Position numbers and translations under genes: made by a program. This document shows positions 12,589 through 33,712 of a stretch of 41,207 nucleotides of DNA, in pieces. Below the pieces are notes generated by a model. The model made no database searches. It was not told the origin of the DNA and saw only the letters and a program-made list of their open reading frames with translations. The stretch covers positions 1 to 41,207 of the forward strand of contig CAXRBW010000148.1 in NCBI GenBank assembly GCA_964228775.1, read 5' to 3'. Positions within the stretch are counted from its first letter, which is position 1; each line of letters begins with the position of its first letter. This DNA is from Pyrinomonadaceae bacterium. GTDB taxonomy: Bacteria; Acidobacteriota; Blastocatellia; Pyrinomonadales; Pyrinomonadaceae.

Positions 12589-12614
12589 CTTGCTTACGTT
12601 CGTGATGAATCCAC

Positions 12615-16100: not shown

Positions 16101-17597
16101 TTACTTATTAACGAAATCTACTATGGCCTGCGTTGCTTGTTCGACAATCGGTGAAATAATGTCCTCACCTTCGGATTTCGCTTTGGATTTAAACTGCCGT
16201 GTCAGTGCAGCGGACCCGTCAGTCTTTTTAAGGTTAACGTCGAGTGTCAACTCATCCTTGGCTTTGATACTCGCGGCCGCATCGGCTGCCGTCCAAATCG
16301 TTACACGAGCAGTTTCGGCGGCGACCTGACCTGCGACGCTTCCGCCGTATGGAACAGCACCTCCTAGAACATTACCGATACTCCTCAAGCCTCCGAATCC
16401 GCCTCCACCTCTCTTATGTGAAACCTGAGCAAACAAAACGAAGTCGCAGTTTGAGTTTTTTGCTTCTTGCTCGATTGCTGAAGATAGTTTCGCTTCAAGT
16501 AGTACGATTTCGACACCTGTGCCCTTGAAATACTCACCGAGCGAAGTTTGGATTGCGCCGGCCAACGCTTGCGCGTTCATGCCGTCGCCAACCGAGCCGG
16601 TTTTGATCCCTGAAAGACCGACTCGAATAACTCCACTTTGCTTGTCGCCGGCCTGTGACGATGTCCTCAAATCGCCGAGGTTGGTGGTCTTTTCTCCGGC
16701 ATCCGTGGGCTTATCTGATGAGTCTTCATTAGAGGCATTGTTCCCGCTTGGAAGATTGGCCATATTGAAGCCACCGAACATGGTGCCTCCAGTGAACATT
16801 TCCTGCATGCTCTTTGCTACACGATAATCAGATGGTGCTTCAAAAAGCGATGCTTCGAGGGTCGCATATGAAAGATTAAGAACTTCTTTAGTGGTAGAAA
16901 AAGGTGGCTTGCCTGAGTCATCGAACATCGTCGTCTTCTCGTAAAGAGCAAAACCAGTCTTTCCAGCACCGGAGTTTTTGATTTCGTATCTGTCACGGCA
17001 TCCCTCGTCAAATTCCTGTTGATTGGTGGTCGGCATTCTGAACTGGGAATCGTCGCCACAATCAAAAGCGACTTGGGCGTCGATATACCAGCCGTCCGTC
17101 TCCATCTTCATCTTTTTCTCACCATCACAAGCATCGGCAGAAGATTCCATTTGAATGGTTTGGATGATGTGCCGAGCGGTGAATCCAAACATCTGCTTCC
17201 GCTCTCCGGTGTCTCTAAGCGAAATAATGACCGTGACCGTGCCTCCTTTTCTGACAACCGTAGTAGTGGAGCCACCGTTTTGGGCATTTCTGCTAGTGGA
17301 AGATGTCACCGAGGTCGTTGGAAGGCTTTCATCCTGGGCCCATGAATTGATGATGTACATCTTGGTCGTCGGATTCAGTTGGATGGTACGCTTCAAATCA
17401 CACTGCTTGATATTGATCATCTTCATACCGCCGAAATCTTGTTCGGTACGCTCGCGCTTACCCTTGATGTAGGTAGTGTTTTCCAGCGTCTGTCCACCTA
17501 CCGTTTGCCGCACCTTGAGTGTGGCATCGGCAAAAGCAGAAATCGCCACAAAGACAATGCAAAATATTGATGTAATCGTTCTTGTTGGTGTGAGCAT
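16101..17597 (-). CDS. Secreted hypothetical protein (about 498 aa) with S/T/G-rich linkers
   Basis: The best start is ATG 17597 (MLTPTRTITSIFCIVFVAISAFA signal peptide), with GGAGG 7 nt upstream. The track start ATG 17651 overlaps the upstream stop as ATGA. No family was recognised. Confidence 0.7.
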   Translation of the reverse strand: MLTPTRTITSIFCIVFVAISAFADATLKVRQTVGGQTLENTTYIKGKRERTEQDFGGMKMINIKQCDLKRTIQLNPTTKMYIINSWAQDESLPTTSVTSSTSRNAQNGGSTTTVVRKGGTVTVIISLRDTGERKQMFGFTARHIIQTIQMESSADACDGEKKMKMETDGWYIDAQVAFDCGDDSQFRMPTTNQQEFDEGCRDRYEIKNSGAGKTGFALYEKTTMFDDSGKPPFSTTKEVLNLSYATLEASLFEAPSDYRVAKSMQEMFTGGTMFGGFNMANLPSGNNASNEDSSDKPTDAGEKTTNLGDLRTSSQAGDKQSGVIRVGLSGIKTGSVGDGMNAQALAGAIQTSLGEYFKGTGVEIVLLEAKLSSAIEQEAKNSNCDFVLFAQVSHKRGGGGFGGLRSIGNVLGGAVPYGGSVAGQVAAETARVTIWTAADAAASIKAKDELTLDVNLKKTDGSAALTRQFKSKAKSEGEDIISPIVEQATQAIVDFVNK

Positions 17598-17647
17598 ATT
17601 CATTCCTCCAAATGTCTTACACATAAGCACCTTATTTGTATGAAATC

Positions 17648-18709
17648 TCATTTTGAGAACTTAGAATCAGCAACGGGAGCGTTTACCTTAACGGCGATGA
17701 TCTTTCTGGTCCAATAGATGTTAGGCACGGCGAACTTTATAGTCGTTGGCATTCTAACTCCACCGAAGTCTTTGTAATCGCTATAGTCTATTTGATAGAC
17801 ATAATTTCCGAGGGTGGTTGGCACTCCATTCATCCTCCTGACGAGGAATCCGCTTGTCACATCGAAGAAAAGATTGACGCGTTGATTGGCAACTGAAGTC
17901 GCCCTTACAACGTACACATCCTTCCCGTCTATGCGGTCTAGCCGGAGATATTCGAATTTGGTGAATAGATTTCGAAGGTCCGCACCACCGAAGAATTGGG
18001 CCTCGCGCCTAATTTCATCCATCTCATCCTGGTGGAGTGATATAGCTGAGCCACCGGAGAGTTTCCAAGCGTCGGTTCCATTGAAAATCTCCGAGATGAC
18101 GATCCCCCCGTAGGTAGTTTCGGTCCGCAGTTTTCCTCCTTTTTGGAAGATTTCTTCAGACTCCGATGTTTTGTTGTCTGATTCCATACGAATCGCTTTG
18201 ACTACCCTCGAGGTAATCTTACTGAAGTTACCGGCACCCACACTTGCATTGTAACTATCTAATATTGAGTCAACAGTAGGTTTGACGGCTGGCTGTTTCG
18301 GTCTCTCGATTGCAATACTCGGAACAAGCGGAAAAACTGCCTGGGGGTGGGAGGTTCCTTTATGACAGGAATTACAATTTATCTCAGGTCGTCCGTTGAA
18401 ATAGGTTTTGTTCAATTCAAAAACCATTTTTAGCATTTCCCGCGCGGTGGCCTTGTGTTCACTGTCTTCCTTTTCAAAATCGACATCGTTCGACACGTGA
18501 CAGAATTTACAATCAACGCCGAGTGAAGCAGTCATTTGGTTCATGACCTTTCCCATCTGATCGGCGGGCATTGAATTAAGAACTTTGATGTTTTTGAATT
18601 CCTCACCAGCCGTCTTGACGCGGGTTTGAGTGCTCCCATTCGGAGCAAAAATCACAAATGCTGCGAACGAAAAGGAAAAAATGATTGAGATTTGAAGGAG
18701 TTTTTTCAT
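17648..18709 (-). CDS. Secreted di-heme c-type cytochrome with a photosynthetic-reaction-centre cytochrome-like N-domain and a beta-rich (LolA-like?) C-domain
   Basis: A signal peptide and two CxxCH motifs (CKFCH, CNSCH) sit in the pattern EEFKNIKVL...M...M..SLGV.C.FCH...D...E...K..AR.M..M, which is typical of the PRC cytochrome c family. Confidence 0.7.
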   Translation of the reverse strand: MKKLLQISIIFSFSFAAFVIFAPNGSTQTRVKTAGEEFKNIKVLNSMPADQMGKVMNQMTASLGVDCKFCHVSNDVDFEKEDSEHKATAREMLKMVFELNKTYFNGRPEINCNSCHKGTSHPQAVFPLVPSIAIERPKQPAVKPTVDSILDSYNASVGAGNFSKITSRVVKAIRMESDNKTSESEEIFQKGGKLRTETTYGGIVISEIFNGTDAWKLSGGSAISLHQDEMDEIRREAQFFGGADLRNLFTKFEYLRLDRIDGKDVYVVRATSVANQRVNLFFDVTSGFLVRRMNGVPTTLGNYVYQIDYSDYKDFGGVRMPTTIKFAVPNIYWTRKIIAVKVNAPVADSKFSK

Positions 18710-20467: not shown

Positions 20468-21505
20468 ATGATTTCAAACCTGCAAATTCTCCGAGCCTTG
20501 GCGGCGATCAATGTGGTCTTCTTCCATGTTCTCGTATGGGGGAAAAATTGGTATGGAATCGACGCCCCTTATCTAGGATACATGCGTGGTTGGGGTGAAA
20601 GCGGCGTTGATGTATTTTTTGTAATGTCAGGATTTCTGCTGGTTTATAGCCAAGCGCGAAACCCAAGAGGTGTTTGGGACTTTGGTGTGAATCGCATTTT
20701 GAGAATTGTTCCGCTTTATTGGATTCTGACGATTCTCTTTGCGGTGATAGACATCTCCTCGCCTGGAATCTTGACCTCTGCGCCAACTACACCGGAATTT
20801 TTACTCTCCTCTCTCGGCTTCTTGTCACGGATGACAGGTCATGCTTATCCATTGATGATTGTCGGTTGGACCTTGGATTTCGAGATGTTCTTTTATCTCA
20901 TAATCGCGCTTGGAATATTAGTATTTGGACACGGAAAAACCTACACAGTTACGGCGGCGATTTTTCTGCTTTTTGTAACGATGAATTGGGCTGACGCGTT
21001 GATAATCGAATTCCTTTTCGGAGTTTTGATTGGACTTCTCTATGTTAGAGACTCCAATGGAAAACTTGCTCGGACACTTTTGGCACTCGGAGTCGTCCTG
21101 TTGTTTGCGAGCATCCACATAAGTGACGAGCAGTGGAATTCATGGCGATTGATTGGCGCTGAGTATGGTCTTGAGGCAAGTAAGAATGATTTGAGGCTCG
21201 TCATTTGGGGAGTTCCATCGGCGTTGATAGTTTATGGAGTAGTTAATCTTAAACAAATAAAAACTCCAGTACTTCTTTTCCTCGGAAACTGCTCATACAG
21301 CATCTTTCTTGTGCAGGCTATTTTTCTCCCACTTGCTCTAAGACTTTTCTTGCCATATACGGAGAGTCTTAATGTGGACATCGGATCTCTTCTTATAGTG
21401 ATTTTCACGATTGGAGTTGGCGTGGCAACCCATTACCTTATGGAGCGCCCGTTGGCGCTAATGGCAAAGCAACTTCAATCAATCATTTCAAAACAGCCCG
21501 TATGA
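20468..21505 (+). CDS. Acyltransferase family 3 integral membrane protein (OafA/NolL-like O-acyltransferase)
   Basis: The N-terminal LRALAAINVVFFHV...GVDVFFVMSGFL motif is followed by about 10 hydrophobic segments. Confidence 0.85.
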   Translation: MISNLQILRALAAINVVFFHVLVWGKNWYGIDAPYLGYMRGWGESGVDVFFVMSGFLLVYSQARNPRGVWDFGVNRILRIVPLYWILTILFAVIDISSPGILTSAPTTPEFLLSSLGFLSRMTGHAYPLMIVGWTLDFEMFFYLIIALGILVFGHGKTYTVTAAIFLLFVTMNWADALIIEFLFGVLIGLLYVRDSNGKLARTLLALGVVLLFASIHISDEQWNSWRLIGAEYGLEASKNDLRLVIWGVPSALIVYGVVNLKQIKTPVLLFLGNCSYSIFLVQAIFLPLALRLFLPYTESLNVDIGSLLIVIFTIGVGVATHYLMERPLALMAKQLQSIISKQPV

Positions 21506-21915
21506 ATCCTGAATATTTTCAGGTTCGCTTCTCTTCTCCATTGACTGTCTCTGTTTGGCCGGCATCGTTTGCAATCATCACAGCATGGCCAACAACGGGC
21601 GAAGTCTGGCAGCCGAGTAGGATTGGAGAGGCGGATAGAAAACTGGTTGCCAGGCTTGAATCTGAATCTGGATGGGTTGTTCCTTTGACCGGTTATTCAC
21701 CGGCGACAGGTCATTCCGAACCTGGATGGGGCGCAGAAATTGAATTTGAAAAGGCCTGTGATATTGGACAAGAGTGGTTACAGGACGCTGTCTATTTCGT
21801 GCAAGACGAGATCTTATTTGTGAGTTTCTGCGACCACAGAAGAAAACCTTTCCAAGTTGGGAACTTCTTTGAGAGGCTCGATTCTCACGATGTTGTCACT
21901 GCTTCGTTGAAATAA
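21502..21915 (+). CDS. Hypothetical protein, DUF3293-like
   Basis: Its ATG overlaps the acyltransferase stop as ATGA. The pattern FAIITAWPTTGE...N...L...L...G....GYSP..GHSEPGWG...A..IGQEW.Q.AV recalls DUF3293 (from memory; not verified). Confidence 0.55.
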   Translation: MNPEYFQVRFSSPLTVSVWPASFAIITAWPTTGEVWQPSRIGEADRKLVARLESESGWVVPLTGYSPATGHSEPGWGAEIEFEKACDIGQEWLQDAVYFVQDEILFVSFCDHRRKPFQVGNFFERLDSHDVVTASLK

Positions 21916-22849
21916 AAATCGCTTGGTCACCGATTCCCTCGGAATTAACACGGCGTGCTTCTTCTGAAAACATTTTTAATTCCGATTCGGTAAAGTTGCT
22001 TCGTTGTGATTCAAAACTTGCTTGTCCTTCTAGCAGTGCGACATCCCTTTGGTAAAGCTCGCTTCCCCAAAACTGAAAATCAAAAGAATCAAATTTCACC
22101 GTTTCCATTTCAAGGCCCGCCGATGAAATCAAAATACCAATGCTTTTCAAAGAGTGGAGATAGAAATGTCGGGGAGCGTCTAGTTGAACCCAATCCCGAC
22201 CGTACTTTTGATAGGCAAAAGACGAGGATAGTGGAATTCTGATAACCAATTTGCCACCTTTGACGAGCAATTCCGAAGCGCTCTTGATGACTTCGCTTTG
22301 TCGCGGCATGTGTTCAAAGGAATGATTGAAGAAGATTGAGTCATATTCACCAGCATGTTCGAAAATACTTTGTTTTCTTATTACAAGATGGTCGTCGACT
22401 ATTTGATCTTCAGAAATAAATGGATCAATGCCCGTTAGGTTTTTGAAGCCTGCGTTTCTGAGTTGCCTTAAAAATCCGCCGCCACCCGAACCGACATCTA
22501 ATATCCTAAGATTCTTATTTCGCAGCGCCGAAGAAACGTTGCGGATTTCCTCTTTACTCTTAACCCAGTACAGAAGTCGCCCGACAACCCCTTTACCTGT
22601 AGCGGCAAACATATCCCTTTGACCGACAAGGAACCTTAGCAATGGACTATCTGATGGTATGGTGTTAGCAAGCGAATAGTAATCAGAAGGGTAGTGCTTG
22701 TCGATCGATTCCGGATACAAATCTATCTGAAGACATTCACAGAAATCACAACGGAAATAGTCGAATGTTTCGCGGGAGCCGAACATCATTTCGCGAGCAG
22801 TGATAATTCCGAAATCGCCTGAAGAGTTACAAATACGACAAGTTTTCAT
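21896..22849 (-). CDS. Class I SAM-dependent methyltransferase with an N-terminal Cys4 zinc-ribbon
   Basis: CRICNS...CDFCE at the N-terminus. SAM motif I is ILDVGSGGGGFLRQL. No DPPY/NPPY or PCQ motif is present, so it is not an obvious DNA methyltransferase. Its 3' end overlaps the convergent DUF3293-like ORF by 20 nt. Confidence 0.8.
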   Translation of the reverse strand: MKTCRICNSSGDFGIITAREMMFGSRETFDYFRCDFCECLQIDLYPESIDKHYPSDYYSLANTIPSDSPLLRFLVGQRDMFAATGKGVVGRLLYWVKSKEEIRNVSSALRNKNLRILDVGSGGGGFLRQLRNAGFKNLTGIDPFISEDQIVDDHLVIRKQSIFEHAGEYDSIFFNHSFEHMPRQSEVIKSASELLVKGGKLVIRIPLSSSFAYQKYGRDWVQLDAPRHFYLHSLKSIGILISSAGLEMETVKFDSFDFQFWGSELYQRDVALLEGQASFESQRSNFTESELKMFSEEARRVNSEGIGDQAIFISTKQ

Positions 22850-22855
22850 AGCTTG

Positions 22856-23455
22856 CTATTCAAGATCTGAAATAGCCTTTTTGATTTTCTCAATCAGCCT
22901 GTTCCCGTCGGCAAGGCTGAACGGTGATTTCCAATCGTCAGATGCTCTAAGCTCGAGACCTTCCTCAATTTGCACGGATTTCCAACCTGTTGGTGTTTCT
23001 ATTGATCGTTCTTCGACATTCTTTGTTTCAGCTATCTTCGTAAGCTCAGAAGAGGTCGTTGAGAGATTAACGTCATTCCTATATGACGCGTAGTCCTCAA
23101 TCTCATCGGCACTTTCGAAATCCGGCAGCGGGCGAGAAATAAACGTTTCGAGTGGTATGACGTGGGGTCCCTTAAATGTTTTCTTAATTTGTCTTATCGA
23201 GAACCCAACTGACTGCAATTTCTTAACAGCTACCGCAGTCAATACATGTTGGTGATTGAAAACTGCCTGGACACCCTCTTTTGAGATGGCGGGTGGCAGT
23301 AATCCTTCGGTCAAATAAAATCTTAGAGAACGTTCATTGAGAGACTCATTCACATTACCCCGACCCTGGCCGATGCGAACCTTGGCAATCTCCGTGTTAA
23401 CCGCTTCAACTAGATTCTTAACGCCCAATATCTTGTTTCTATTACTCGAACTCAT
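22856..23455 (-). CDS. Hypothetical protein with a divergent MerR-like HTH segment and an acidic C-terminal half
   Basis: SLRFYLTEGLLPPAISKEG..AVFNHQHVLTAVAVKKLQSVGFSIRQIKK resembles the MerR wing and start of the dimerisation helix (R.YE..GLL.P......R.Y......L..I..L...GFSL..IK). The stop lies 6 nt before the methyltransferase start, so the two are probably co-transcribed. Confidence 0.5.
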   Translation of the reverse strand: MSSSNRNKILGVKNLVEAVNTEIAKVRIGQGRGNVNESLNERSLRFYLTEGLLPPAISKEGVQAVFNHQHVLTAVAVKKLQSVGFSIRQIKKTFKGPHVIPLETFISRPLPDFESADEIEDYASYRNDVNLSTTSSELTKIAETKNVEERSIETPTGWKSVQIEEGLELRASDDWKSPFSLADGNRLIEKIKKAISDLE

Positions 23456-23493: not shown

Positions 23494-23958
23494 TAAAATA
23501 GGCATTGTTATTCTGTCAGTGAAGTACTGTTACTTCTTTTTGCACTCGGCGGCTAGGCTTGGGCCGAGCTGAATCGAATAGATCTGATGGTCCGGATTTG
23601 GACTGTCGGTAAATGAAATGATGGCTCGTTTCATGGACCATGAACTGCTCGACGAGGAGACGGGTCAGGTTCTAATCGGAACGGTTTCATGGTGCTCTTG
23701 TCGAAATACTCTGTTCGGTTTTCGCGGTGGTCTTGCTGATGCTAGCAACTTATTATTCAAGTCGTGATGATGTTCGTACTTCTCAGCGAATCCGGACTCA
23801 ACTAGCCATTGAAATCAGAGTATGAATTTGGCCGGTAAATCTGCTATTGTTGGCAGACGAAAAAGTAGTTGTCCGCATTCTACTTGCTCAAAATCTTAAT
23901 CGTTTAGTTTGTCTCTGAACGAGAAGTTTACGGGTGTGATTGGAAAAATCATTCACGT

Positions 23959-26900
23959 ATGAAGAGACAGTCCGAAACATTCAAATCAACCGCTGCGATT
24001 CTGCGCAATGCAGAGCGTGTTTTCGTACTCACTGGTGCGGGGGTTTCTGCTGAGTCCGGGGTTCCTACATTCAAAGGAGGCGGACAATCGCAGACTTGGC
24101 AGGGTAGGTCGTTTTCATCACTTTCCTCAGTAACCCTAATCGAAGAAGATCTTCCACTTGTGTGGGAATGGTTCGATTACAGGCTTAATCTGATCAGCCA
24201 ATGTAACCCGAATGCGGCGCATGAGGTGCTCGCCAAAGCCTCCAAATACTCAAGATACAAAAGCTTTTCACTTGTAACTCAAAACATCGATGGTCTTCAT
24301 GAGTCCGCCGGCTCCGAAGGAGTCGTGGAACTACATGGGAGTATCTGGAGGGCGAGATGTCTAGGCTGTGGTGCGATTGAGCCTATCTCAGAGATTCCGA
24401 AGGAGGATCGGCCGCCTGTCTGCGGTGGGTGTGGGGATTCGATGAGGCCTGATGTAGTGCTCTTCGGGGAAACATTGTCTAGTGCTTCTTATGGACTCGC
24501 ACATGCGTACGCTGCTGCATGTGATGTCTGCTTGGTAATTGGAACTTCTGCACTAGTGTATCCGGCGGCGGCGTTGCCGCAGGCGGCTCGGCGAAATGGG
24601 GCAAAAATAATCGAGATAAATCCCGAAGAAACTGCGGTCAGTAAATACGCTGATATTTCAATAAGACGGGCGGTAGCAGAGGTTCTCCCTCAATTATTCA
24701 GTTTTATCGAAGAGGGAGAGGTTGATTCCGAGGCACTCGAAGAACCACCAGAGATAAAGGAAGCAATAAAGGCCTATCTCGAGGAAAAAGGTGGCGAGGA
24801 GCTTACAGAAGAGGAGTTTGATCTATCACCAATACTTGACGATCGGTTCAGGGAAAATAGGAAGAGACTTGTATCGTTCGCTTTTGAAGGTGGAGGCGCA
24901 GAATTATACCGCTTCACGACAGATAGGGGCGATACCTTCTTATTCGTTTCAGGGGGTAGTGTCGATACAAATAATGAAACGAACGAAGAGTGGCTTTGGT
25001 GGGGACCTGTCGTTGTCGATTCTGTAAAAGACGGTATTACGAGAATCGCAGGGGAAGATTTGATTTTTCATATCGCGCGGGCGTTCGTACATCCAGACTG
25101 CATCGACGATGTAACGGAATATGTGCAAAAGGTGTTTTCTGATCTTTCGGAAGCTTCTCTCCGTAAGTTAGCGCTGTTCAAAAAGCCGACCACTGTCGAG
25201 GAATGGTTATCTAAAGCAAATCATGATGAAGCCCTGTTCAATTCAACTGAAGAAGAAGCCTTGGAACAAACTGTGGGTGAATCGCAGGAAGAGCTTCATC
25301 AGTCGATGCAATCAGATGTGGCTGCGGAGCAAAAACCGTCAGAGCGAGCCATTTATTCCAATCGAGCTAACAGACACTTTCTCCTGTTTTGGCGCAGCAC
25401 CACCTTAATCGCCCATGAGAGATCTAAATCACTCTTGGATCTGATTTCAAGCAATCAAATTTCAGAAGTCAATAACGGTGACACCCTCTGGGTCGTAACT
25501 GTGATTGATGGCGAACTTGTACTGTGCGGAAGAATGGTTGTGGGCGAGGTTCTTGATCGTCACGGAGCAAGTGAGAGATTCGGTGACAAAGATTTATGGA
25601 AGTCAGATTGGTTTGCAGTAGCAAAAGAATCTACTCCTTGCGAGAGGCTCCGCCGAATACATCTCGGAGAAAGCGCATTCGATCTTAGATTTAATGATGA
25701 GTTTGAAGACAGATTTGTCGCAGCAGATGGGCGGATATCGAGAAGCCAGACGAGGCAGATGCGCGAACTTACGGATGGGACGGTTGAACTGCTAGAAGAA
25801 GTTTGGAAGGAGGGAGATCTGACAGAGGTTTCAGATGAAGAGATAGAGATACTTGTCAGAAATCTAGATTCTAGTTCGCCTCCGATGGTTGATAGCGCCG
25901 AAACGAATGGAAAACTGTTTGGAAAGTTTGAAGGGTGCCTTCTAGGTGGTGCTGTAGGAGATGCACTTGGAGCGGGAGTGGAATTTTCCTCGTTTGAAAA
26001 CATTTTGGAACTATACGGAGAAGATGGTGTGACTGACTATGTGCCGTGTTTTGGAAGTCTCGGCGCAGTCACCGATGAAACTCAATTATCACTTTTCACA
26101 GCCGAGGGTTTACTGAGGGCCGAAGTTCGTAGGAAAGAAAAGGGTATTTGTTATCCTGCTGCGATTGTCTACAACTCATATCTTAGGTGGTTACGAACAC
26201 AAGGGGTGGAACTCGAAGGAGATGAGTTGAGAGAGCAGGTTTATGAATCTCCGAGCTGGCTAGGGGACATATCGGCGATGAATTCAAAGCGGGCGCCCGG
26301 CAGTACCTGTTTGAGTGAACTCGCCTCAGGTGTAATGGGAACAACTGCAGAGCCATTGAATTCAAGCAAAGAAAGTGGGGGTTTGATGAGAACTGCGGTG
26401 GTTGGTCTCATAACAAACGAACCTTTTGAACTAGCCGCGGAAATTGCCGCAATAACCCATGGGCATCCCAGCGCCTTTCTAAGCGCGGCGGTAGTTGCAG
26501 AAATTATTCGTAAGCTTTTATCGGGAAACTCATTGATTGATTCAATTGAGCACACTCTTTACGAGGAACTGCCGAATCATGAAGGATATGAAGAAATCCT
26601 TTCGGTATGCCACAGGGCGCTTAGTCTTGCCAAAATGCAGACTCGAGATATTGGAACAGGTACAAATGACGTTTCAACACTCGAATTGGAGTTAAGAGAA
26701 TTGAAAGACCTCGAAATACCCTCCCATAGGTCGGTTGAATGGATTGGTAAAGGTTGGGTAGCGGAAGAAACCTTGGCGATTGCGCTCTATTGTTCAGTGG
26801 TCTACTCCAACGACTTCAGAAACGGATTAGAACTTTCCATCAACCACTCAGGCAACAGCAATGGAGTTGGTGCATTGACTGGAAATATTTTAGGTACTTG

Positions 26901-27036
26901 GTTAGGCATTGAATCAGTTCCCGATACTTGGCTGCAACGCTTGGAGTTGAAGGATGTTATTCATACCGTTTCGCGCGATCTGTATTCCTCGTTCATCGAA
27001 GAAACTGGATGGGAAGATAGATATCCGGGACATTAA
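23959..27036 (+). CDS. Multidomain protein: N-terminal sirtuin (SIR2/CobB-like, Zn-ribbon), about 400 aa unassigned central region, C-terminal ADP-ribosylglycohydrolase (ARH/DraG-fold) domain
   Basis: A single uninterrupted 1025-codon ORF. Sirtuin motifs: GAGVSAESGVPTF (aa 26-38), QNIDGLH (108-114), ELHGS (H126), CxxC x2 (C134/137/155/158), GTSALVYPAA and IEINPE. ARH motifs: LLGGAVGDALGAGVEF (aa 661-676), VTDETQL (704-710), RAPGSTCLSEL, ITHGHPS, GWVAEETLAIALY and NHSGNSNGVGALTGNILG (962-979). Confidence 0.85.
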   Translation: MKRQSETFKSTAAILRNAERVFVLTGAGVSAESGVPTFKGGGQSQTWQGRSFSSLSSVTLIEEDLPLVWEWFDYRLNLISQCNPNAAHEVLAKASKYSRYKSFSLVTQNIDGLHESAGSEGVVELHGSIWRARCLGCGAIEPISEIPKEDRPPVCGGCGDSMRPDVVLFGETLSSASYGLAHAYAAACDVCLVIGTSALVYPAAALPQAARRNGAKIIEINPEETAVSKYADISIRRAVAEVLPQLFSFIEEGEVDSEALEEPPEIKEAIKAYLEEKGGEELTEEEFDLSPILDDRFRENRKRLVSFAFEGGGAELYRFTTDRGDTFLFVSGGSVDTNNETNEEWLWWGPVVVDSVKDGITRIAGEDLIFHIARAFVHPDCIDDVTEYVQKVFSDLSEASLRKLALFKKPTTVEEWLSKANHDEALFNSTEEEALEQTVGESQEELHQSMQSDVAAEQKPSERAIYSNRANRHFLLFWRSTTLIAHERSKSLLDLISSNQISEVNNGDTLWVVTVIDGELVLCGRMVVGEVLDRHGASERFGDKDLWKSDWFAVAKESTPCERLRRIHLGESAFDLRFNDEFEDRFVAADGRISRSQTRQMRELTDGTVELLEEVWKEGDLTEVSDEEIEILVRNLDSSSPPMVDSAETNGKLFGKFEGCLLGGAVGDALGAGVEFSSFENILELYGEDGVTDYVPCFGSLGAVTDETQLSLFTAEGLLRAEVRRKEKGICYPAAIVYNSYLRWLRTQGVELEGDELREQVYESPSWLGDISAMNSKRAPGSTCLSELASGVMGTTAEPLNSSKESGGLMRTAVVGLITNEPFELAAEIAAITHGHPSAFLSAAVVAEIIRKLLSGNSLIDSIEHTLYEELPNHEGYEEILSVCHRALSLAKMQTRDIGTGTNDVSTLELELRELKDLEIPSHRSVEWIGKGWVAEETLAIALYCSVVYSNDFRNGLELSINHSGNSNGVGALTGNILGTWLGIESVPDTWLQRLELKDVIHTVSRDLYSSFIEETGWEDRYPGH
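23992..24708 (+). other. SIR2 (sirtuin) domain of the 1025-aa protein, about aa 12-250
   Basis: Collinear with E. coli CobB / class III sirtuins (from memory). It includes the Rossmann NAD-binding motifs, the catalytic His and a four-Cys zinc module. Confidence 0.85.
24709..25920 (+). other. Unassigned central region of the 1025-aa protein: two acidic linkers and two apparently globular modules
   Basis: The acidic, low-complexity stretches are aa 251-295 and aa 425-462. The modules are about aa 296-420 and about aa 470-620. The second has a beta-strand pattern faintly reminiscent of PUA-like barrels: FLLFW...GDTLWVVTVIDGELVLCGRMVVGEV. Confidence 0.5.
25921..27018 (+). other. ADP-ribosylglycohydrolase-fold domain of the 1025-aa protein, about aa 655-1020
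   Basis: See the motifs listed for the CDS. The second metal-binding motif reads GNSNG (nt 26851-26865) where I expect G-D-S/T-D-S/T. Confidence 0.8.
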
Positions 27037-27073: not shown

Positions 27074-27484
27074 ATGAGGAGTGACAAAATGTGGCGTGTT
27101 GTATGGTTTCCTTGTCAAAAAGAAGTCAGAGACGCCTATGGAGTTCCTGATTACACAGGTCCAATTCCGTACTTTCTCAGTGGAGAAACATTGGAGTTAT
27201 TTGAACAAGAAAAGAAGATTTTTCTTACTCAGGACATGTTGATTTACGGTATTTTAGCCATATTTGAAGACGCTTTAACCGGAACACCGGACAAATTTCC
27301 AGAGGTTGATCCTGTGAGTTTGGCTAGAATTGCTTTCAAATACACACACGGTTTTGAATACTCAAGCATTGCAGATCTTGCTTTGATTACTTCAGGGGCT
27401 GCATTAAAGAATTTTGGGACAGAACTCAGTGGTCGGATTCTCAGATCTGGTCTACACCTCACTAAAATCCCATATTTTGAGTAG
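27074..27484 (+). CDS. Hypothetical 136-aa soluble protein (no family recognised)
   Basis: The ATG lies 37 nt after the stop of the SIR2-ARH gene, on the same strand. No TM segment or signal peptide is present. The antisense ORF 27244-27555 is less plausible. Confidence 0.5.
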   Translation: MRSDKMWRVVWFPCQKEVRDAYGVPDYTGPIPYFLSGETLELFEQEKKIFLTQDMLIYGILAIFEDALTGTPDKFPEVDPVSLARIAFKYTHGFEYSSIADLALITSGAALKNFGTELSGRILRSGLHLTKIPYFE

Positions 27485-27589: not shown

Positions 27590-28141
27590 ATGAAATCCTC
27601 ATCAAATAACGGCGAGGGGGCTTTTGCCCTTCTGCTTAGCACTCTTTCCTCTGACAACGAGACTGCTCACGCTCTTTACGAAGAGTTAAGAAGGAGTCTT
27701 ATTCGCTACTTTTCATTTCGCGGTTTGCATGACTCTGATCTCGTCGCAGACGAAGTGATTGATCGCGTGGTTGTAAAATTCAGTGATGGTGCCGTCATTG
27801 ATAATGTGCAGCGATACAGTTTTGGGGTCGCGCGGTTAATCTTGCTGGAGAAATTCCGAAAGCAAAGACTTGAGCGGGAAGGACTTGTAGAGCTGGGTAA
27901 AACTAATGGTTCTAATGTTGATTCCGATGAATTGCTCGAATCATTACGTCAATGCATGACTGAACTCACTGAAAATGAACAGGCACTTCTTATGAACTAT
28001 TACAGTTCCAGGTCAAAGGATTTAGAAAAGAGGGAGCAATTAGCGAGAGAGCATGGAACTACGATAAACGGGCTCCGACTGAAGGTTTTTCGGCTTAAAA
28101 AGCGACTTGAGGGATGCGTCAATAAAAAGCGTATTAATTAA
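27590..28141 (+). CDS. ECF-type (sigma-70 family, group 4-like) RNA polymerase sigma factor
   Basis: The region 2-like segment is DSDLVADEVIDRVVVKF. The region 4 HTH is LTENEQALLMNYYSSR...REQLAREHGTTINGLRLKVFRLKKRLEGCV. Size is 183 aa. Confidence 0.7.
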   Translation: MKSSSNNGEGAFALLLSTLSSDNETAHALYEELRRSLIRYFSFRGLHDSDLVADEVIDRVVVKFSDGAVIDNVQRYSFGVARLILLEKFRKQRLEREGLVELGKTNGSNVDSDELLESLRQCMTELTENEQALLMNYYSSRSKDLEKREQLAREHGTTINGLRLKVFRLKKRLEGCVNKKRIN

Positions 28142-28192
28142 TGAAATTTTCCACATTTTTTAACATAAGAAGATAGACGGAAATGGTTTGTT

Positions 28193-29017
28193 GTGGAATA
28201 TAACGAAATCAGACAATACCTGCTCAGCCCAATCCCGGAAGAAGATAATGTTGGGATGTTAATAGCAGTTGATGACAGCGCATTCGCGTTGGCGGAGCAG
28301 GTTGAGAATGATCTTATTGATGACTACCTACTAGATAACCTTTCCGATACAGATAGATATGCTTTTGAGACTAATTACCTCACAAACGAAAAAGCCATTC
28401 ACAAACTCCAACTTGCTCGGGCCATAGCAACACTGTCGGTTGAGTTACTTGATGAAAAAAATGATGAAAAAGGTGTGACATCAAAGACTCGTTTACTCGT
28501 TCTTGGTGTTGCTGCTGGCTTAGTGGTAATCGTCGTCTCTGGGTTCTCCTTATTCCAAATAGATTGGCGTCAGTATCGAGAATCTTCAGTCATGCCTGAA
28601 CCGTCAAAAGAGCAAATCAAAGATGAACCCAAGTTGGATAGAGAGATCAAAAGCAGTGAATCTTTCAATTTGGAAGATGAGATACCGAAGGCACTTGGGA
28701 CAACAGTGATACTGAGGCCGGGCAACCTGAGGGGCCGAGGGTATGAAAATAAAATCTCCTCCAAGAAGGCGGTCGGGCCTATTGAACTTCAATTACAATT
28801 GGCGATTCGAAGAGGTTTCAAAAGATTTCAATTAAAATTTGAAACGCCTGAGGGGGAAAAGGTGGCAATTAAAAATCGTTTCGTGAATCGGACAGTAAAA
28901 GATGTTACGTTTGTAATTCCTTCAGGGCTTGATAGAGGAACCTATTTATTATTTCTTTTTGGAAGCAATGACTCTAATGAGACGCAGATTGGTGAGTACT
29001 CATTGGTGGTTAAATGA
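28193..29017 (+). CDS. Anti-sigma-factor-like single-pass membrane protein with an extracytoplasmic beta-rich domain
   Basis: GTG start 51 nt after the sigma gene. The N-terminus is IRQYLLSPIPEEDN...ENDLIDDYLLDNLSDTDRYAFETNYL. The TM helix is LLVLGVAAGLVVIVVSGFSLF (about aa 101-121). The C-terminal domain is about 150 aa. Confidence 0.6.
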   Translation: MEYNEIRQYLLSPIPEEDNVGMLIAVDDSAFALAEQVENDLIDDYLLDNLSDTDRYAFETNYLTNEKAIHKLQLARAIATLSVELLDEKNDEKGVTSKTRLLVLGVAAGLVVIVVSGFSLFQIDWRQYRESSVMPEPSKEQIKDEPKLDREIKSSESFNLEDEIPKALGTTVILRPGNLRGRGYENKISSKKAVGPIELQLQLAIRRGFKRFQLKFETPEGEKVAIKNRFVNRTVKDVTFVIPSGLDRGTYLLFLFGSNDSNETQIGEYSLVVK

Positions 29018-32000
29018 TTCGCTTCTTATATTTTCGGTATTTCCTTTCTGAAACTTTGAATTCCAAGCGCCTTGTATGACGAAAGAGGCCCAATATCGAG
29101 GCGACCTCCATCTTTCACTTTTAAGAAACTGATTCTGAGCATATCGCAGAGCTGCGGGCGGATCGAGGCCTATTTCAAAAAGACCCACATAGAAATGCTC
29201 CATGAAATAAGCTGTTGCGGCGTCGTCCACCTTCCATAAGGTGGACAAAACACTCTTTGCGCCCGAGTTCATAAATCCTCGTGTTATTCCTATCGTGCCT
29301 TTTCCAAGCTTGTCATCGTCACCAATTGTCTGGCAGCCACTAAGAATGACGAGATCTGATTCAATCTTGAGGTCATAAAGATCAATACTCCGAAGCAGTC
29401 CGTCGATAGCGGTCCCGTTGCTGTCGTAAAGACTTAGGATTAATCCGGAAAGTTCAGGATGACTGTCATTTATAAATCCGTGCGTTGCGAAGTGAAGAAT
29501 TCGGAAATGTTTGAGATTTTCTGAGAGTATCCGAGATCGAGTTGCTCTGAATGCCGTGAATAACTCCACATGTTCATTCACAATGCTAGCAATCTTTCGA
29601 GCTTCGAGCTGACTAAAGGGTAGGCGTTGTAGTGAGTTGAAGTGGAACTCTGACAAGGCGGCGGCAGTTTTAGTCGGTAGGTTTTGTTGTTTTCTATCAG
29701 GGTCTTTAAATCGGGTGTCTTCTCTGTTGTAAATTGGATCTGAAAACACTCCAACAGTGTTTTGAGATCCAGAAACTGCTGTAGACTTCCTATTCTCAAG
29801 AAGAATTAAAGTTGCGGCAGAAGGAGTTAGTACAGTGTCAAAAACTTGAGATATGAATTTTTCCTTTCCGCTCCCTCGATCGATTGGAATAGCAAGTGAT
29901 GCAAATGGGGTTGATAGAAGTAAATCGTCGGGAATGATTAAGACTCTCTTATATCCCTTCAACCATAAAAATAGCGGAGCAATCAGGGCTTTCGAAACCT
30001 TTTTGTTTGCATTATTAAAAGTGGTAGGGGTGGAGGTAGAGGAACTTATTTGACGATTTAGGGATAAGACCGCTTCGGTTATAACAGCCTCTGACTCCAA
30101 TGTAACAAAGTGTCTCTCGTTTTTACTGACGACGATTGCGTAGCTCGCTTCAGTACCTAAAAGATATTGGACCGCCACCGTATCTGAGTCGATGTATTTT
30201 TGAAACTCTTTCAATGAGGGTGAGTATTGCGTTATCAACAATTTGTCAGAGGATGCCTTATTGGAGATGACCTCTTTTAAATTGTCATAGCGACTAAGAA
30301 GCTCAGATATCTTGAAACTGTTGCGGTCCTTTAAGGAGGGAGTGTGACGGCTTTCAATTTCCAGTTGTGCGATATCACTGAGGAGTTTATCTCGGTCCGT
30401 CCTTAGGTTCAGATCGACACTCCTTTCAAGATTTAGGCCTATATCAGAAATGATTTCTACCAGTTCGACAGCTTTTATCCTTTCCATCACCTCGAACGCT
30501 TGATCGATATAGTCGCCATTACCGGTTGTATTGAAGAGTGAGTAAAGAATGTCTATTTTCTTTTTCGAGAATTCCCGTATGGTTCCAACCGAGAATCCGG
30601 TCCGGACCGATTGCGAATACATCGTGTCCCGCATTGAATTTGTGTATGAAAGAGCTATGTCAATATTTTCGAGAGCGGCTTTGAAGTTGGAGGACTTAAA
30701 TTCCAGTAGTGCAAGATTCTTATAAATGCCTGCTTCAGCAAAGATATCTTTGTATTGGATAGCTAAACTTAGGGCTTTATTGAGTGATTCTTTAGCTAAA
30801 TCAAATCTTCCGATTTGAGTATAAAGCTCCCCTAAAAATCCGTGGATTGCCAGAGTTTCCCTGGGAGAATTGTTTTCAAAATAGTGGAGTGATTTTTTTA
30901 GCAGATCCTCTGCGGCTTTGTATTCACCAACCTTGATTAGAATCTCGGCAACGGCGAATTGATATCTTGCAAGTTGCCTCGATCTACCAAGTCTTTCAAT
31001 TAATTCTAAAGTCCGAAAGGCCAGTATGCGGTAGCTTTTAAAATCTCTCTTTTGTATGAAACGTTGCTCTGCACTTGTGTAGAGAGCGTTAAGGCTGTAT
31101 GCCGGGTGAATCTTTTCTGAATTGGCGAGGTAGGTCTCGTATGCAGCCCTCGAGAAATAATTTAGCTTATTTGGGTCGGTGACGTAGGTATATACCGATA
31201 CTGCGAAGAGTTGGAGCCACTGATATCCCTCGATGTCGGCTTTTTTTGATACTTCGAGTTCCCTATTCAATATTTCAACCGCATCCATAGGGTTACCAAG
31301 ATCGTAAAGGATGCGCGCTTTTATGCTGATTGCCCTCGTTTCCATCTGACGGTCATCAGTGTCCCGTGAGATTTGGATTGAATCTGAAATTAACCTTTCG
31401 ACTTCGGGGGTTTTTCCCTTTAAATAAAAAATCGGAAGAATTGTCTTTATCTGTGAGATTGCAATTCCGGCCTGGTCCCCAAGGTATTTATAGTTTTCGG
31501 TGGAACGTTTCAGATATTGCACTGCGGATTGAAGATCTTCCATCTCGTCATAAAGAAACTGACCCAACCGAAGCGCTGTCATCGCTACCCCCCGATGATT
31601 TCCAACACTGTCGAACAATTCTAAGGCGGCAAGAAAGTTAGACTTTGCTTCGGCACGGACGCTTCGTGAAGTTGATGTCTTGTAAAGCTCGAGAGATTGG
31701 TACTCAGCATCTGATAGCTTTTTAAAAGCTTTTACAGCAACACTTATTTTGCTGTCTGCCACATCAACTTCATTTCTCTCTACTTCAATCTCCCCCTTCA
31801 TATTCCCAGGGCGGTCAGGTGTAAGTTCAATTACATATTGGCCTGCGCGACCTGCCTGAAACACAATCGGTAGTGTCCCATTCCAAAGGGTGGGTGATGC
31901 GATTGATATGACTTTCTGTTTTAAGGGGTCTCTGACTGAGGCGTGAAGTGAGACTCCTCGATGGGCAATGGTTAAATCCACCACTTCTCCAGCTTTTAAG

Positions 32001-32167
32001 AGGAGTGGAAACTCCACAATTTTCCTACTGTTTAGGATTGCGGTGAATTTATTCGAGGTGCTGTGGGGCGTTGAAAGGACTTGCGTTGCTGGAATAAGAG
32101 TTAAGGCGAAGAAAAATACAACTCTAAATGATTTCAGGCCGAACCTATTGAACAGCATGCCCGCCAT
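29000..32167 (-). CDS. Exported TPR-repeat CHAT-domain protein (caspase-like protease family)
   Basis: The signal-peptide-like N-terminus is MLFNRFGLKSFRVVFFFALTLIPATQVLS. It is followed by a beta-sandwich-like segment, multiple TPR-like helical repeats (about aa 160-520) and a C-terminal CHAT domain. The domain carries the His (HFATHG, codon 29481-29483) and Cys (LVILSGCQT, codon 29333-29335) dyad. Its 3' end overlaps the convergent anti-sigma gene by 18 nt. Confidence 0.85.
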   Translation of the reverse strand: MAGMLFNRFGLKSFRVVFFFALTLIPATQVLSTPHSTSNKFTAILNSRKIVEFPLLLKAGEVVDLTIAHRGVSLHASVRDPLKQKVISIASPTLWNGTLPIVFQAGRAGQYVIELTPDRPGNMKGEIEVERNEVDVADSKISVAVKAFKKLSDAEYQSLELYKTSTSRSVRAEAKSNFLAALELFDSVGNHRGVAMTALRLGQFLYDEMEDLQSAVQYLKRSTENYKYLGDQAGIAISQIKTILPIFYLKGKTPEVERLISDSIQISRDTDDRQMETRAISIKARILYDLGNPMDAVEILNRELEVSKKADIEGYQWLQLFAVSVYTYVTDPNKLNYFSRAAYETYLANSEKIHPAYSLNALYTSAEQRFIQKRDFKSYRILAFRTLELIERLGRSRQLARYQFAVAEILIKVGEYKAAEDLLKKSLHYFENNSPRETLAIHGFLGELYTQIGRFDLAKESLNKALSLAIQYKDIFAEAGIYKNLALLEFKSSNFKAALENIDIALSYTNSMRDTMYSQSVRTGFSVGTIREFSKKKIDILYSLFNTTGNGDYIDQAFEVMERIKAVELVEIISDIGLNLERSVDLNLRTDRDKLLSDIAQLEIESRHTPSLKDRNSFKISELLSRYDNLKEVISNKASSDKLLITQYSPSLKEFQKYIDSDTVAVQYLLGTEASYAIVVSKNERHFVTLESEAVITEAVLSLNRQISSSTSTPTTFNNANKKVSKALIAPLFLWLKGYKRVLIIPDDLLLSTPFASLAIPIDRGSGKEKFISQVFDTVLTPSAATLILLENRKSTAVSGSQNTVGVFSDPIYNREDTRFKDPDRKQQNLPTKTAAALSEFHFNSLQRLPFSQLEARKIASIVNEHVELFTAFRATRSRILSENLKHFRILHFATHGFINDSHPELSGLILSLYDSNGTAIDGLLRSIDLYDLKIESDLVILSGCQTIGDDDKLGKGTIGITRGFMNSGAKSVLSTLWKVDDAATAYFMEHFYVGLFEIGLDPPAALRYAQNQFLKSERWRSPRYWASFVIQGAWNSKFQKGNTENIRSESFNHQ

Positions 32168-32251: not shown

Positions 32252-33712
32252 TTAAGAAGAGCAACTGACGACGATTCTTGGCGAACCTGTGGGGGCGGGT
32301 TTGGAATATTCCTCAAATTCGGGCTGATCAGAATATGGAATTTCGAGAATCTGGGAGAGTTTTCGAACTTCGGAATAATCTCCCTCCTGTGCCTTCTCAA
32401 TGGCTTTTTGGGCCAAGTGATTCCTCAAAATGAATTTCGGATTCACCCGCCGCATATTTTTTGGACGGTCAGTAGGAGCTTGATTAGACAGTCGGGCTCG
32501 GTAACGTGAGGCCCAAAAATCAAAGGCGTCGGGATCTACTAGCATTCCCTTTAATTGCCAATTATGAGGGTCTGTTACGGAATCGAAGTCACAAAGCCTT
32601 CGGAAGAAAATGGTGTAATCAGCGCCGCTTTGCTGAAGCTGGAGCAGAATCTCGGAAATCAACTCACTATCATCAGCTTGCTGATTGGTTAAGCCGAGTT
32701 TATTACCCATGATTGAGAAATATTCAGTCACAAATTTCTCTTCATAACCGTCGAGTATGGCAATCGCCTCTTCTCGTGAGATTAGAGACAAAAGGCTCTG
32801 GGCGAAGCACGATAAATTCCAAAGACCAATGTTCGGTTGCTGGTGGAAGGCATATCTGCCCGAATGATCCGAATGGTTGCAGATAAGTGAGGGTTCAAAT
32901 TCTTCTAAAAATCCAAACGGACCATAATCTAATGTGAGACCTGTCACAGACATGTTGTCGGTGTTCAGTACTCCGTGTGCAAATCCGACCGCTTGCCAAC
33001 GAGCAATAAGTTTTGCCGTGAGATCTACAACGGTTTCAAGAAAGGTAAGGTACCGGTCTGATCTAGAGAGAAGATTCGGAAAATGTTTTGAAATTACATG
33101 ATCGGCGAGTCGCCTCAGATTTTCGTTTTGATTTCGGGAGGCAAATAATTCAAACGTACCGAATCTTATGTGGGTTGGGGCGACTCGGGTGAGAACTGCG
33201 GCGGCTTCAAGTGTCTCTCTTTGGACAGCGTCATCAGCCTCAATTACACACAAAGCTCTTGTTGTTGGTATTCCAAGATGGTGCATGGCCTCACTGCACA
33301 GAAACTCCCTTATGCAGGAACGCAGAACAGCGCGCCCATCCCCCATACGCGAGAATGGAGTTTGACCTGAACCTTTCAGTTGTATTTCAACTGTGGATTT
33401 AGAGGGTGTTTCTAGCTCCCCGAGAAGAATCGCCCTTCCATCGCCCAACTGCGGAACCCACACACCAAACTGGTGTCCCGCATAAATTGTGGCTATAGGC
33501 TCAGAGTTTTTAAATATTCGGTTTCCAGAAAAATATTCCGTGAATTCGGTCCGTTTGAATTCTAAAGGATCAAGACCAATCAAAACCGATGTATCGCTGC
33601 TTCCAACTACTAAACGCGGATTGATAATGGGTGTTGGGGGAATTTTTTCAAAGAAATCCTTACCCAGAGAATCGTAGTTGTTGGTAAAAGAAAGTTGTTC
33701 GAGTGTTTTCAC
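32252..33712 (-). CDS. selO: Protein adenylyltransferase SelO (YdiU/UPF0061 pseudokinase-fold AMPylase)
   Basis: Motifs seen: YAGHQFGVWVPQLGDGRAILLGE, LKGSGQTPFSRMGDGRAVLRSCIREFLCSEAMHHLGIPTTRAL, and HGVLNTDNMSVTGLTLDYGPFGF. The C-terminus is ...VSCSS. Confidence 0.92.
   Translation of the reverse strand: MKTLEQLSFTNNYDSLGKDFFEKIPPTPIINPRLVVGSSDTSVLIGLDPLEFKRTEFTEYFSGNRIFKNSEPIATIYAGHQFGVWVPQLGDGRAILLGELETPSKSTVEIQLKGSGQTPFSRMGDGRAVLRSCIREFLCSEAMHHLGIPTTRALCVIEADDAVQRETLEAAAVLTRVAPTHIRFGTFELFASRNQNENLRRLADHVISKHFPNLLSRSDRYLTFLETVVDLTAKLIARWQAVGFAHGVLNTDNMSVTGLTLDYGPFGFLEEFEPSLICNHSDHSGRYAFHQQPNIGLWNLSCFAQSLLSLISREEAIAILDGYEEKFVTEYFSIMGNKLGLTNQQADDSELISEILLQLQQSGADYTIFFRRLCDFDSVTDPHNWQLKGMLVDPDAFDFWASRYRARLSNQAPTDRPKNMRRVNPKFILRNHLAQKAIEKAQEGDYSEVRKLSQILEIPYSDQPEFEEYSKPAPTGSPRIVVSCSS

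Follow-up and report, generated by a model that had tools for sequence, protein, structure and literature searches.

A bacterial sirtuin–ADP-ribosylglycohydrolase fusion with two further middle domains, a putative short form of a rare Swiss Army Knife-type family

What might a bacterium do with a polypeptide that carries a sirtuin at one end and an ADP-ribosylglycohydrolase (ARH) fold at the other? The question is raised by a stretch of 41,207 nucleotides (nt) from a Pyrinomonadaceae bacterium (assembly GCA_964228775.1, contig CAXRBW010000148.1, positions 1 to 41,207), hereafter the window, in which positions 23959..27036 (+) form one open reading frame (ORF) of 1025 amino acids (aa) with an ATG start and 0 internal stops. 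A preliminary description, made from the sequence alone, had called it one uninterrupted ORF, which is confirmed here, and had recognized the two terminal domains, which also stand; what it overlooked are two further domains in the 400-residue middle, referred to below as A and B, the larger family to which the protein belongs and the degenerate state of its ARH metal site. The fusion is not only real but also rare, and mechanistically it is suggestive; we regard it as a lead and not as a new kind of system. The parts of the gene are as follows.

23959..27036, + strand: whole ORF, SIR2 – domain A – domain B – ARH (ORF call, Pfam, orthologues)
23992..24708, + strand: class III sirtuin, CobB/Sir2-Af1/SIRT5-like, with Cys4 zinc ribbon, aa 12–250 (Pfam, NF001753, PDB)
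24823..25218, + strand: domain A, aa ~289–420 (AlphaFold model)
25219..25362, + strand: acidic linker, aa ~421–468, predicted to be disordered (predicted local distance difference test, pLDDT, <50)
25363..25833, + strand: domain B, aa ~469–625, predicted PUA-like beta-barrel, YTH/EVE/ASCH-like (Foldseek)
25921..27018, + strand: ARH/DraG-fold ADP_ribosyl_GH domain, aa 655–1020 (Pfam, PDB)
26842..26871, + strand: degenerate metal-site motif NHSGNSNGVG, aa 962–971 (DraG alignment, family comparison)

Seven orthologues of the same short form were found in a search of 5.8 billion protein clusters and, in the case of L109, by a metagenome DNA scan. P0001 and L109 are 94% and 96% identical to the window protein, respectively, and P0002–P0006 are 48–50% identical. 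These sequences, drawn from JGI, ENA and Logan assemblies, share an identical domain order, have lengths of 997–1033 aa and show unbroken conservation across the middle region. Ratios of nonsynonymous to synonymous substitution rates (dN/dS, Nei–Gojobori) between the window and the locus L085 were calculated by region and amount to 0.143 for the whole ORF, 0.143 for the sirtuin, 0.148 for domain A, 0.094 for domain B and 0.108 for the ARH domain, which indicates that all domains are under purifying selection (0.09–0.15). The acidic linker (aa 421–468) alone is relaxed, with a dN/dS of 0.43; it is poorly conserved and differs in length between orthologues.

These data answer the worry that a misassembly or frameshift had joined separate genes, a join that is excluded by the independent assemblies together with the dN/dS values. 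The degenerate metal motif of the ARH domain might be taken as a sign of two or three artificially joined genes or of a decaying pseudogene, but a single ORF of 997–1033 aa recurs in eight sequences from independent assemblies, every domain including the ARH (0.108) is under purifying selection, and the linkers keep their positions. Because the same architecture is present in an orthologue set from independent assemblies, artefact or decay is refuted, and we consider its remaining chance negligible. A GTDB genome scan with sirtuin-motif patterns returned sirtuin-domain matches only, with no full-length orthologue among the 80 loci listed; two of these loci, L002 and L018, are stand-alone sirtuin ORFs of 260 and 251 aa.

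Judged by its sequence, the N-terminal module is a class III sirtuin of the canonical zinc-ribbon kind, complete in its catalytic and nicotinamide adenine dinucleotide (NAD)-binding motifs, in agreement with the preliminary call. All the motifs on which that call was based are present in the translation, and the two Pfam families that had been expected were both found, SIR2 (PF02146) at the N-terminus (aa 26–202, E 8.5e-38) and ADP_ribosyl_GH (PF03747) at the C-terminus. The NCBIfam model NF001753, "NAD-dependent protein deacylase", scores 251.7 bits and passes its curated cut-off of 243, and aa 18–250 match the structures of Sir2-Af1 (170 bits) and SIRT5 (146 bits). The catalytic His126, the zinc-ribbon residues Cys134/137/155/158 and the NAD-binding motifs GAGVSAESG and QNIDGLH are invariant in the seven orthologues. 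Phe72/Arg75, likewise invariant in the orthologues, occupy the positions of SIRT5 Tyr102/Arg105, which we take to be the acidic-acyl-binding Y-x-x-R pair. The domain is 58–59% identical to matches in the Acidobacteria genome contigs L001 and L002, and the one Acidobacteria match that was checked, L002, is the 260-aa stand-alone ORF mentioned above. Sirtuins of this kind use NAD and release nicotinamide and 2′-O-acyl-ADP-ribose. The window sirtuin thus shares with CobB, Sir2-Af1 and SIRT5 the full Rossmann fold and Cys4 zinc ribbon, the catalytic His and the NAD motifs, whereas these known members are single-domain proteins of ~240–280 aa and the window protein has 775 residues more; it further differs from the SIRT5 type by having Phe for the Tyr of the Y-x-x-R pair.

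The ARH/DraG fold proposed for the C-terminus is borne out by a full-length match to PF03747 (aa 659–989, profile positions 1–286 of 287, E 7.3e-57), and the PDB matches of the domain are 2cwc, DraG and ARH3. Proteins that score E ≤ 1e-10 number at least 5003, and the 120 closest listed are 43–51% identical and mostly stand-alone proteins of 345–400 aa; their named sources are Acidobacteria, Pyrinomonadaceae, Chloracidobacterium, Gemmatimonadaceae, Gemmatimonadales, Longimicrobiales and Thermodesulfobacteriota. The same clade includes ~540-aa fusions of an ARH domain to a PTP-SAK-type phosphatase (P0188, P0201, P0230, P0284, P0290). By sequence relationship, both enzyme modules of the window protein, sirtuin and ARH, appear to come from common stand-alone enzyme groups.

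The ARH signature blocks listed in the preliminary description are all present, but NHSG-x-S-x-G cannot be counted as canonical, with two Asp changed to Asn. In a HMMER alignment, NHSGNSNGVG of the window sits on NQGGDADTTG of Rhodospirillum rubrum DraG, so that N966, N968 and G969 align with D-x-D-T. In DraG and ARH3, both Asp and the next Thr of this motif ligate the binuclear Mg/Mn centre (in DraG presumably D243, D245 and T246). All other family members have NHSGDSDSTG (11/11), and G-D-x-D-[ST] is found in 106 of the 106 motif-matched proteins among the 120 closest listed ARH relatives, Asn in none. Residues N966, N968, G969 and V970 are common to the window, L085 and L109, and a variant shared by these three independent assemblies is therefore no sequencing error. 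On the N-terminal side of the metal site, E675 of the GDALG block is present and the T-D-D-T motif reads T705-D706-E707-T708, a conservative D-to-E change; mutagenesis of ARH1 is reported to show that Asp-to-Glu is tolerated at a T-D-D-T-type site, whereas Asp-to-Asn is not. The domain therefore resembles DraG, ARH1 and ARH3 in its full-length fold and its N-terminal GDALG..E and T-D-[DE]-T ligands, and differs from them in that the window lineage has N-x-N-G in place of the C-terminal D-x-D-[ST].

The simplest reading of these substitutions is that hydrolysis may have been lost or much reduced and that a ligand-binding or structural role has been kept. The ARH domain of the window lineage lacks the C-terminal metal ligands yet is under strong purifying selection (dN/dS 0.108). 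ARH2 (ADPRHL1), an inactive, stand-alone ARH-fold protein of eukaryotes, offers a likeness by analogy only, since the window ARH too is retained under selection with changed metal-site residues. Separately, the L081 locus, and no other, has a stand-alone 363-aa ARH divergently upstream of its orthologue (5973–7064, −), with the motif NDTRDNDT. It was considered as a paralogue or compensating copy and rejected, since its subfamily is unrelated (32% identity over 72 residues); no second ARH was found in the window.

An AlphaFold model of aa 285–640 contains two folded domains with the disordered acidic linker between them, and on this model the 400-residue middle is two conserved folded domains and not a linker. 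Domain A, modelled alone from 18 sequences (pLDDT 85.5; predicted template modelling score, pTM, 0.79), is predicted to form a four-strand antiparallel meander followed by helices. Foldseek gave no significant match for it, the best E-values being 0.27 in PDB and 0.016 in BFVD, and neither domain A nor domain B matched Pfam, EVE, ASCH, YTH and PUA profiles included. Domain A accompanies domain B in larger relatives.

Domain B has a core pLDDT of 75–88 and three tryptophans, W478, W511 and W547, that are invariant in the orthologues. Its best Foldseek match is the YTH domain of Mmi1 (E 1.7e-3, probability 1.0, template modelling score relative to the target, TM-target, 0.50–0.55), and it also matches the EVE domains of THYN1 and PpR72 and an ASCH protein; over these YTH, EVE and ASCH structures, probabilities range from 0.93 to 1.00, E-values from 1.7e-3 to 1.9e-2 and TM-target from 0.35 to 0.60. 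When 1.84 billion representatives were searched exhaustively with phmmer, domain B found 530 clusters of relatives at E ≤ 1e-3, of which 168 reached E ≤ 1e-10; many members are stand-alone proteins of ~150 aa or two-domain proteins of ~300 aa. Among the 146 that were scanned with Pfam, domain B relatives occur with NOV_C (30), TPR (20), HNH_2 (12), HNH (11) and PTP-SAK (7). The combination of a PUA-like reader with an HNH or restriction endonuclease-fold nuclease is the layout of modification-dependent restriction enzymes. Because of its predicted fold and the HNH and NOV_C nuclease fusions of its relatives, domain B is most simply seen as a reader of nucleic acids or modified nucleotides, and it is probably a reader or targeting module. 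The likeness to modification-dependent restriction enzymes lies in the EVE/YTH/ASCH-type fold and in these fusions, whereas in the window the partners of domain B are a sirtuin and an ARH, without a nuclease. A domain with at least 530 representative clusters that no Pfam model matched, and with nuclease fusions suggesting the reading of nucleic-acid modifications, may be of interest in itself.

The larger relatives place the fusion in a family. Pfam and BLASTP segments give the full-length order as SIR2 – DSP/PTP phosphatase – domain A – domain B – TPR – ARH, which in P0030 is laid out as SIR2 25–201, PTP 297–476, A+B 493–802, TPR 844–1075 and ARH 1534–1840. The full form is found in P0030, P0007, P0008, P0009 and P0010, and partial forms comprise SIR2+PTP+A+B, SIR2+B+TPR and A+B+ARH. 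The phosphatase, present in P0007–P0011, P0014 and P0030, matches PF22784, "Swiss Army Knife protein, DSP-PTPase phosphatase domain" (PTP-SAK); the window protein has no phosphatase match at E ≤ 1 in Pfam. BLASTP against P0007, P0009 and P0030 covers query residues 5–300, 292–627 and 641–1024. Identities to proteins of the family are 52–60% for the sirtuin, 29–38% for the A+B unit and 45–47% for the ARH domain. By these comparisons the window protein is a short form of a rare Swiss Army Knife (SAK)-type family, from whose long members it differs in having neither the DSP/PTP phosphatase nor the TPR block and in its degenerate ARH metal site.

The name of PF22784 implies that such relatives have already been catalogued computationally, and the architecture was partly anticipated by surveys. 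The SAK name is said to stem from Burroughs and Aravind in 2023. Literature text searches on Swiss Army Knife proteins with sirtuin or ADP-ribose returned nothing relevant, and the earlier statement that no characterized protein of such architecture was known holds to the extent that none was found experimentally characterized in the literature searched. A survey of ADP-ribosylglycohydrolase (ARG) systems left out sirtuin-linked ARGs on purpose (Iyer et al., 2022; PMC9503650). The systems it describes are stand-alone or phosphatase-fused, whereas the window ARH is fused to a sirtuin. For ARG-phosphatase systems, the type to which P0188 and the similar fusions above belong, it predicts that they undo ADP-ribosylation inflicted by viruses (PMC9503650, section 3.8). 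ARH3 and macrodomains hydrolyse O-acetyl-ADP-ribose (PMC9503650, sections 3.4.1–3.4.2). The fusion of a canonical deacylase with an ARH domain may provide a direct handle on the fate of O-acyl-ADP-ribose and its signalling in bacteria, which are poorly understood. The intact ARH of P0002-type proteins and the degenerate one of the window lineage form a natural contrast with which to ask whether the domain clears, senses or ignores the sirtuin product.

What such a protein could do is best told step by step. With a probability of about 0.45, we favour a deacylase that is tethered to a nucleic-acid-linked target by domains A and B, in a family that acts as a combined eraser and with a window ARH that binds or regulates. 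The gene would encode a cytoplasmic, single-chain, multi-module enzyme, the sirtuin of which would deacylate lysines with NAD to yield nicotinamide and 2′-O-acyl-ADP-ribose. Domains A and B would hold the enzyme at its target, which is probably either a nucleic acid or a protein bound to one, and which possibly bears a modified base or an ADP-ribose adduct. At the level of the family, the ARH domain, together with the phosphatase where present, might strip ADP-ribose-type groups (and phosphate groups) from the same target, or alternatively the ARH might clear the O-acyl-ADP-ribose produced by the sirtuin; the family would in this way be a combined eraser of several modifications. The window ARH is most likely non-hydrolytic and may bind ADP-ribose or O-acyl-ADP-ribose, serving the sirtuin as a module for product binding or regulation. 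Expression would be controlled through a largely invariant 31-nt leader at the start codon, which is described below. In function, the protein would most resemble a CobB-type deacylase equipped with accessory modules for ADP-ribose handling and for reading.

A fuller version, a single-chain multi-eraser that a new PUA-like reader directs to a modified nucleic acid or a target resembling chromatin, with the window ARH as a non-catalytic sensor and with a dedicated leader or operator, seems to us a long shot. If it were true, the ARH sensor would couple sirtuin output to its own regulation, making it a bacterial pseudo-hydrolase that regulates a sirtuin.

Several points weigh against the tethered-deacylase reading. 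The PUA-like assignment comes from a medium-confidence model (two-domain pLDDT 67.5) with Foldseek E-values of ~2e-3, and domain B itself gave no match to the Pfam PUA, EVE or ASCH profiles. The nuclease partners of its relatives show a binding tendency of the domain family and not the ligand of the window copy. Asn can still ligate Mg or Mn, and residual or altered ARH catalysis may occur. In the SIRT5-type acyl-specificity pair Y-x-x-R, the Tyr is Phe. The conserved synteny shows no obvious writer enzyme or target gene beside window-type genes, so genomic context gives no direct support for any substrate.

Three other explanations were weighed. The preliminary description had offered, as possible roles, a self-contained writer/eraser pair, a deacylase with built-in clearance of O-acyl-ADP-ribose, and an NADase gated by an ADP-ribose derivative. 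For the window copy, the first two are weakened by the degenerate ARH site; binding or sensing by the ARH domain has become more plausible, while a NAD-depleting defence effector is disfavoured by the deacylase-type sirtuin and the lack of a PADLOC match. In a writer/eraser arrangement, the sirtuin would ADP-ribosylate a target in the manner of SirTM and the ARH would remove the mark as DraG or a macrodomain does. Sirtuin–macrodomain and DraT–DraG pairs are established precedents (PMC9503650), and the ARH metal site is intact in family members outside the window lineage. Like the SirTM–macrodomain systems, the window protein couples a NAD-consuming sirtuin to an ADP-ribose-processing module, but it does so as a fusion instead of an operon, with an ARH fold instead of a macrodomain and with a sirtuin of the deacylase type; no macrodomain was found in the window protein or its neighbours, and no lipoylated carrier or LplA-type gene among the latter. 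The sirtuin also scores above a curated deacylase cut-off and has deacylases as its nearest structures, the window ARH is without D-x-D-[ST], a constitutive fusion of writer and eraser would run a futile cycle unless regulated, and the phosphatase of the longer relatives fits better with several erasers. We consider this arrangement quite improbable.

A defence effector that acts like Thoeris or DSR in one chain, with the sirtuin depleting NAD or modifying invader molecules once the PUA-like or ARH module, or both, sense a modified nucleic acid or a signal derived from ADP-ribose, would suit a degenerate ARH kept under selection as a sensor. It would also suit the HNH and NOV_C fusions of domain B relatives, as in modification-dependent restriction enzymes, and the variable, partly mobile or defence-like contexts of phosphatase-bearing relatives (L086, L087). 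ThsA, DSR1/2, SIR2-HerA and SIR2-pAgo likewise have a SIR2 domain fused or coupled to sensor modules. Unlike these systems, the window protein has the sequence of a canonical zinc-ribbon deacylase, lies in stable synteny and has no PADLOC match: PADLOC gave 0 matches for the window protein, P0009 and P0010, a weak PrimPol match only for P0030 (E 3.7e-4), and nothing meaningful for the neighbours of the window protein. The NADase SIR2 effectors known to us are without the zinc ribbon and deacylase-type sequence that this sirtuin retains. Window-type genes are moreover vertical, with conserved synteny and an ordinary pace of change (48% identity vs 61–66% for SelO; dN/dS 0.14), and an IMG/VR scan with patterns from the domain A+B alignment found no relative. 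A role as defence effector is thus unlikely. The remaining possibility is repair of nucleic-acid ends or adducts, in which the PUA-like domain would bind RNA or DNA, the sirtuin would ADP-ribosylate a 2′-phosphate or other group in the manner of KptA/Tpt1, and the ARH, with the phosphatase in relatives, would clear ADP-ribose-linked products or take ADP-ribose off bases. Domain B points to nucleic acids by its fold and partners, RmuC and AddAB-like genes adjoin the gene in orthologous loci, and phage sirtuins linked to phosphatases have been proposed for such a role (PMC9503650, section 3.7.3). DarG3, the ARH-like antitoxin of a DNA-ADP-ribosylating DarT system, also provides a recent precedent for the ARH fold in a DNA-ADP-ribosylation setting (PMC13069673). 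Set against this, the sirtuin is by profile score a CobB-type deacylase and not of the divergent phage type, the RmuC adjacency is missing in the window, and the neighbours in the window and L081–L084 include no partner of the RNA ligase, kinase or 2H phosphoesterase type; repair therefore appears rather improbable.

Regulation of the gene may involve a short element directly at its start codon, one that all short-form orthologues share.

23929..23959, + strand: 31-nt leader TACGGGTGTGATTGGAAAAATCATTCACGTA with dyad symmetry, the last A of which is the A of the ATG (upstream alignment)

When the 300 nt upstream of five divergent orthologues were aligned, 28 of the 31 leader positions were identical by hand count, although the proteins are only 48% identical; beyond the leader, the DNA of these loci is unalignable. 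Its 19-nt core has a single occurrence in the window (0.02 expected by chance), and among the fetched loci it is found only directly before short-form genes (L081–L085, L109). A metagenome scan of 241 million records gave 24 core matches, of which only L109, again before the gene, is true; the other 23 were dismissed as chance, their flanks being absent. The window and L109 are 98% identical over the last ~115 nt before the ATG and 73–84% further upstream. By eye, the leader may contain a mini-ORF of 8–9 codons (GTG ATT GGA AAA ATC ATT CAC GTA TGA); in four of the five loci, its TGA runs into the main ATG. A structured RNA was rejected, with a weak hairpin (11 pairs), a z-score of 0.46 vs shuffles and no covariation. 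The upstream region matched no Rfam family and shares no motif with that of the neighbouring extracytoplasmic function (ECF) sigma factor gene, and a promoter/terminator scan gave nothing above shuffle expectation. We conclude that the leader is probably a site of sequence-specific regulation, serving as an operator or in the control of translation.

The chromosomal context of the window-type gene is ordinary. Its neighbours in the window are listed below.

20468–21505, + strand: Acyltransferase_3
21502–21915, + strand: DUF3293
21896–22849, − strand: methyltransferase
22856–23455, − strand: MerR-type regulator
27074–27484, + strand: 136-aa ORF with no family match
27590–28141, + strand: divergent ECF sigma factor, 183 aa (TIGR02989, E 5.8e-12)
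28193–29017, + strand: 274-aa anti-sigma-like protein, one transmembrane segment (by eye)
29000–32167, − strand: 1055-aa TPR-CHAT protein, apparent signal peptide (by eye)
32252–33712, − strand: SelO

L081–L084 retain much of this arrangement, with Fic, a ~400-aa protein, DUF3293 and, further on, sirtuin-ARH, RmuC, sigma factor, a ~286-aa protein, TPR-CHAT, VWA, MerR and SelO. Identities between the window and these loci are 61–66% for SelO, 52–55% for DUF3293, 48% for sirtuin-ARH, 39–44% for the sigma factor, 30–31% for TPR-CHAT and 24–31% for the anti-sigma-like protein, which suggests that the window-type gene is a resident of the chromosome that is inherited vertically and changes at an ordinary pace. 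No ADP-ribosyltransferase, macrodomain, HerA, TIR, SLOG or pAgo gene adjoins it in the window or the orthologous loci. RmuC was rejected as a functional partner, being adjacent in four orthologous loci and absent from the window lineage. Its position in the loci of 48% identity is occupied in the window by the 136-aa ORF, which starts 37 nt past the sirtuin-ARH stop and is 90% identical in L085. In four divergent loci, DUF3293 keeps its place 1–8 kb upstream of sirtuin-ARH (copies at L081 4717–5118, L082 1478–1879 and L083 4477–4866, there after Fic and the ~400-aa gene), a persistence that may reflect either a functional link or inherited synteny.

The phosphatase-bearing relatives are single genes in varied contexts. 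The L086 relative adjoins an Mrr_cat/NA-iREase1 gene, an integrase and a Zeta-toxin-like gene, the L087 relative adjoins a UvrD-PDDEXK gene and a DNA_pol_B_exo2 gene, and the L088 relative is inserted among the housekeeping genes purM, purN, rnpA and yidC, a few kb from dnaA. These long-form contexts hint at a mobility or conflict role. Of the features noted at L086 6192–7937 and L087 6825–7490, the Mrr_cat/NA-iREase1 gene lies 63 nt upstream of the L086 relative, and a ~220-aa DNA_pol_B_exo2/RNase_H_2 protein, encoded near the relatives in both L086 and L087, is a possible recurrent partner of long-form proteins.

Other features of the neighbourhood were noted in passing. Positions 27590–32167, and likewise L081–L085, carry a conserved triad of an ECF sigma factor, a single-pass membrane protein and a convergent TPR-CHAT protease; L082 has two such triads. 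The best match of the sigma factor is the "Rhodopirellula/Verrucomicrobium family" model, and it also weakly matches the RpoE model of type III-E CRISPR. The triad recalls the RpoE/Csx30/TPR-CHAT arm of type III-E CRISPR, with no CRISPR present. The protein adenylyltransferase SelO borders the block in the window and in L083–L085, and a Fic gene is found upstream in L081–L083; the neighbourhood is thus rich in protein-modifying enzymes, with no evidence of coupling. Farther away in the window, a XerC/D-type tyrosine recombinase, probably a housekeeping Xer, adjoins a VWA-domain protein (11671–13676, −). A 353-aa protein that matches CytoC_RC, the family of cytochrome c subunits of photosynthetic reaction centres (E 4e-14), is encoded at 16101–18709 (−), where its gene shares 4 nt with the end of a 516-aa ORF without a family match.

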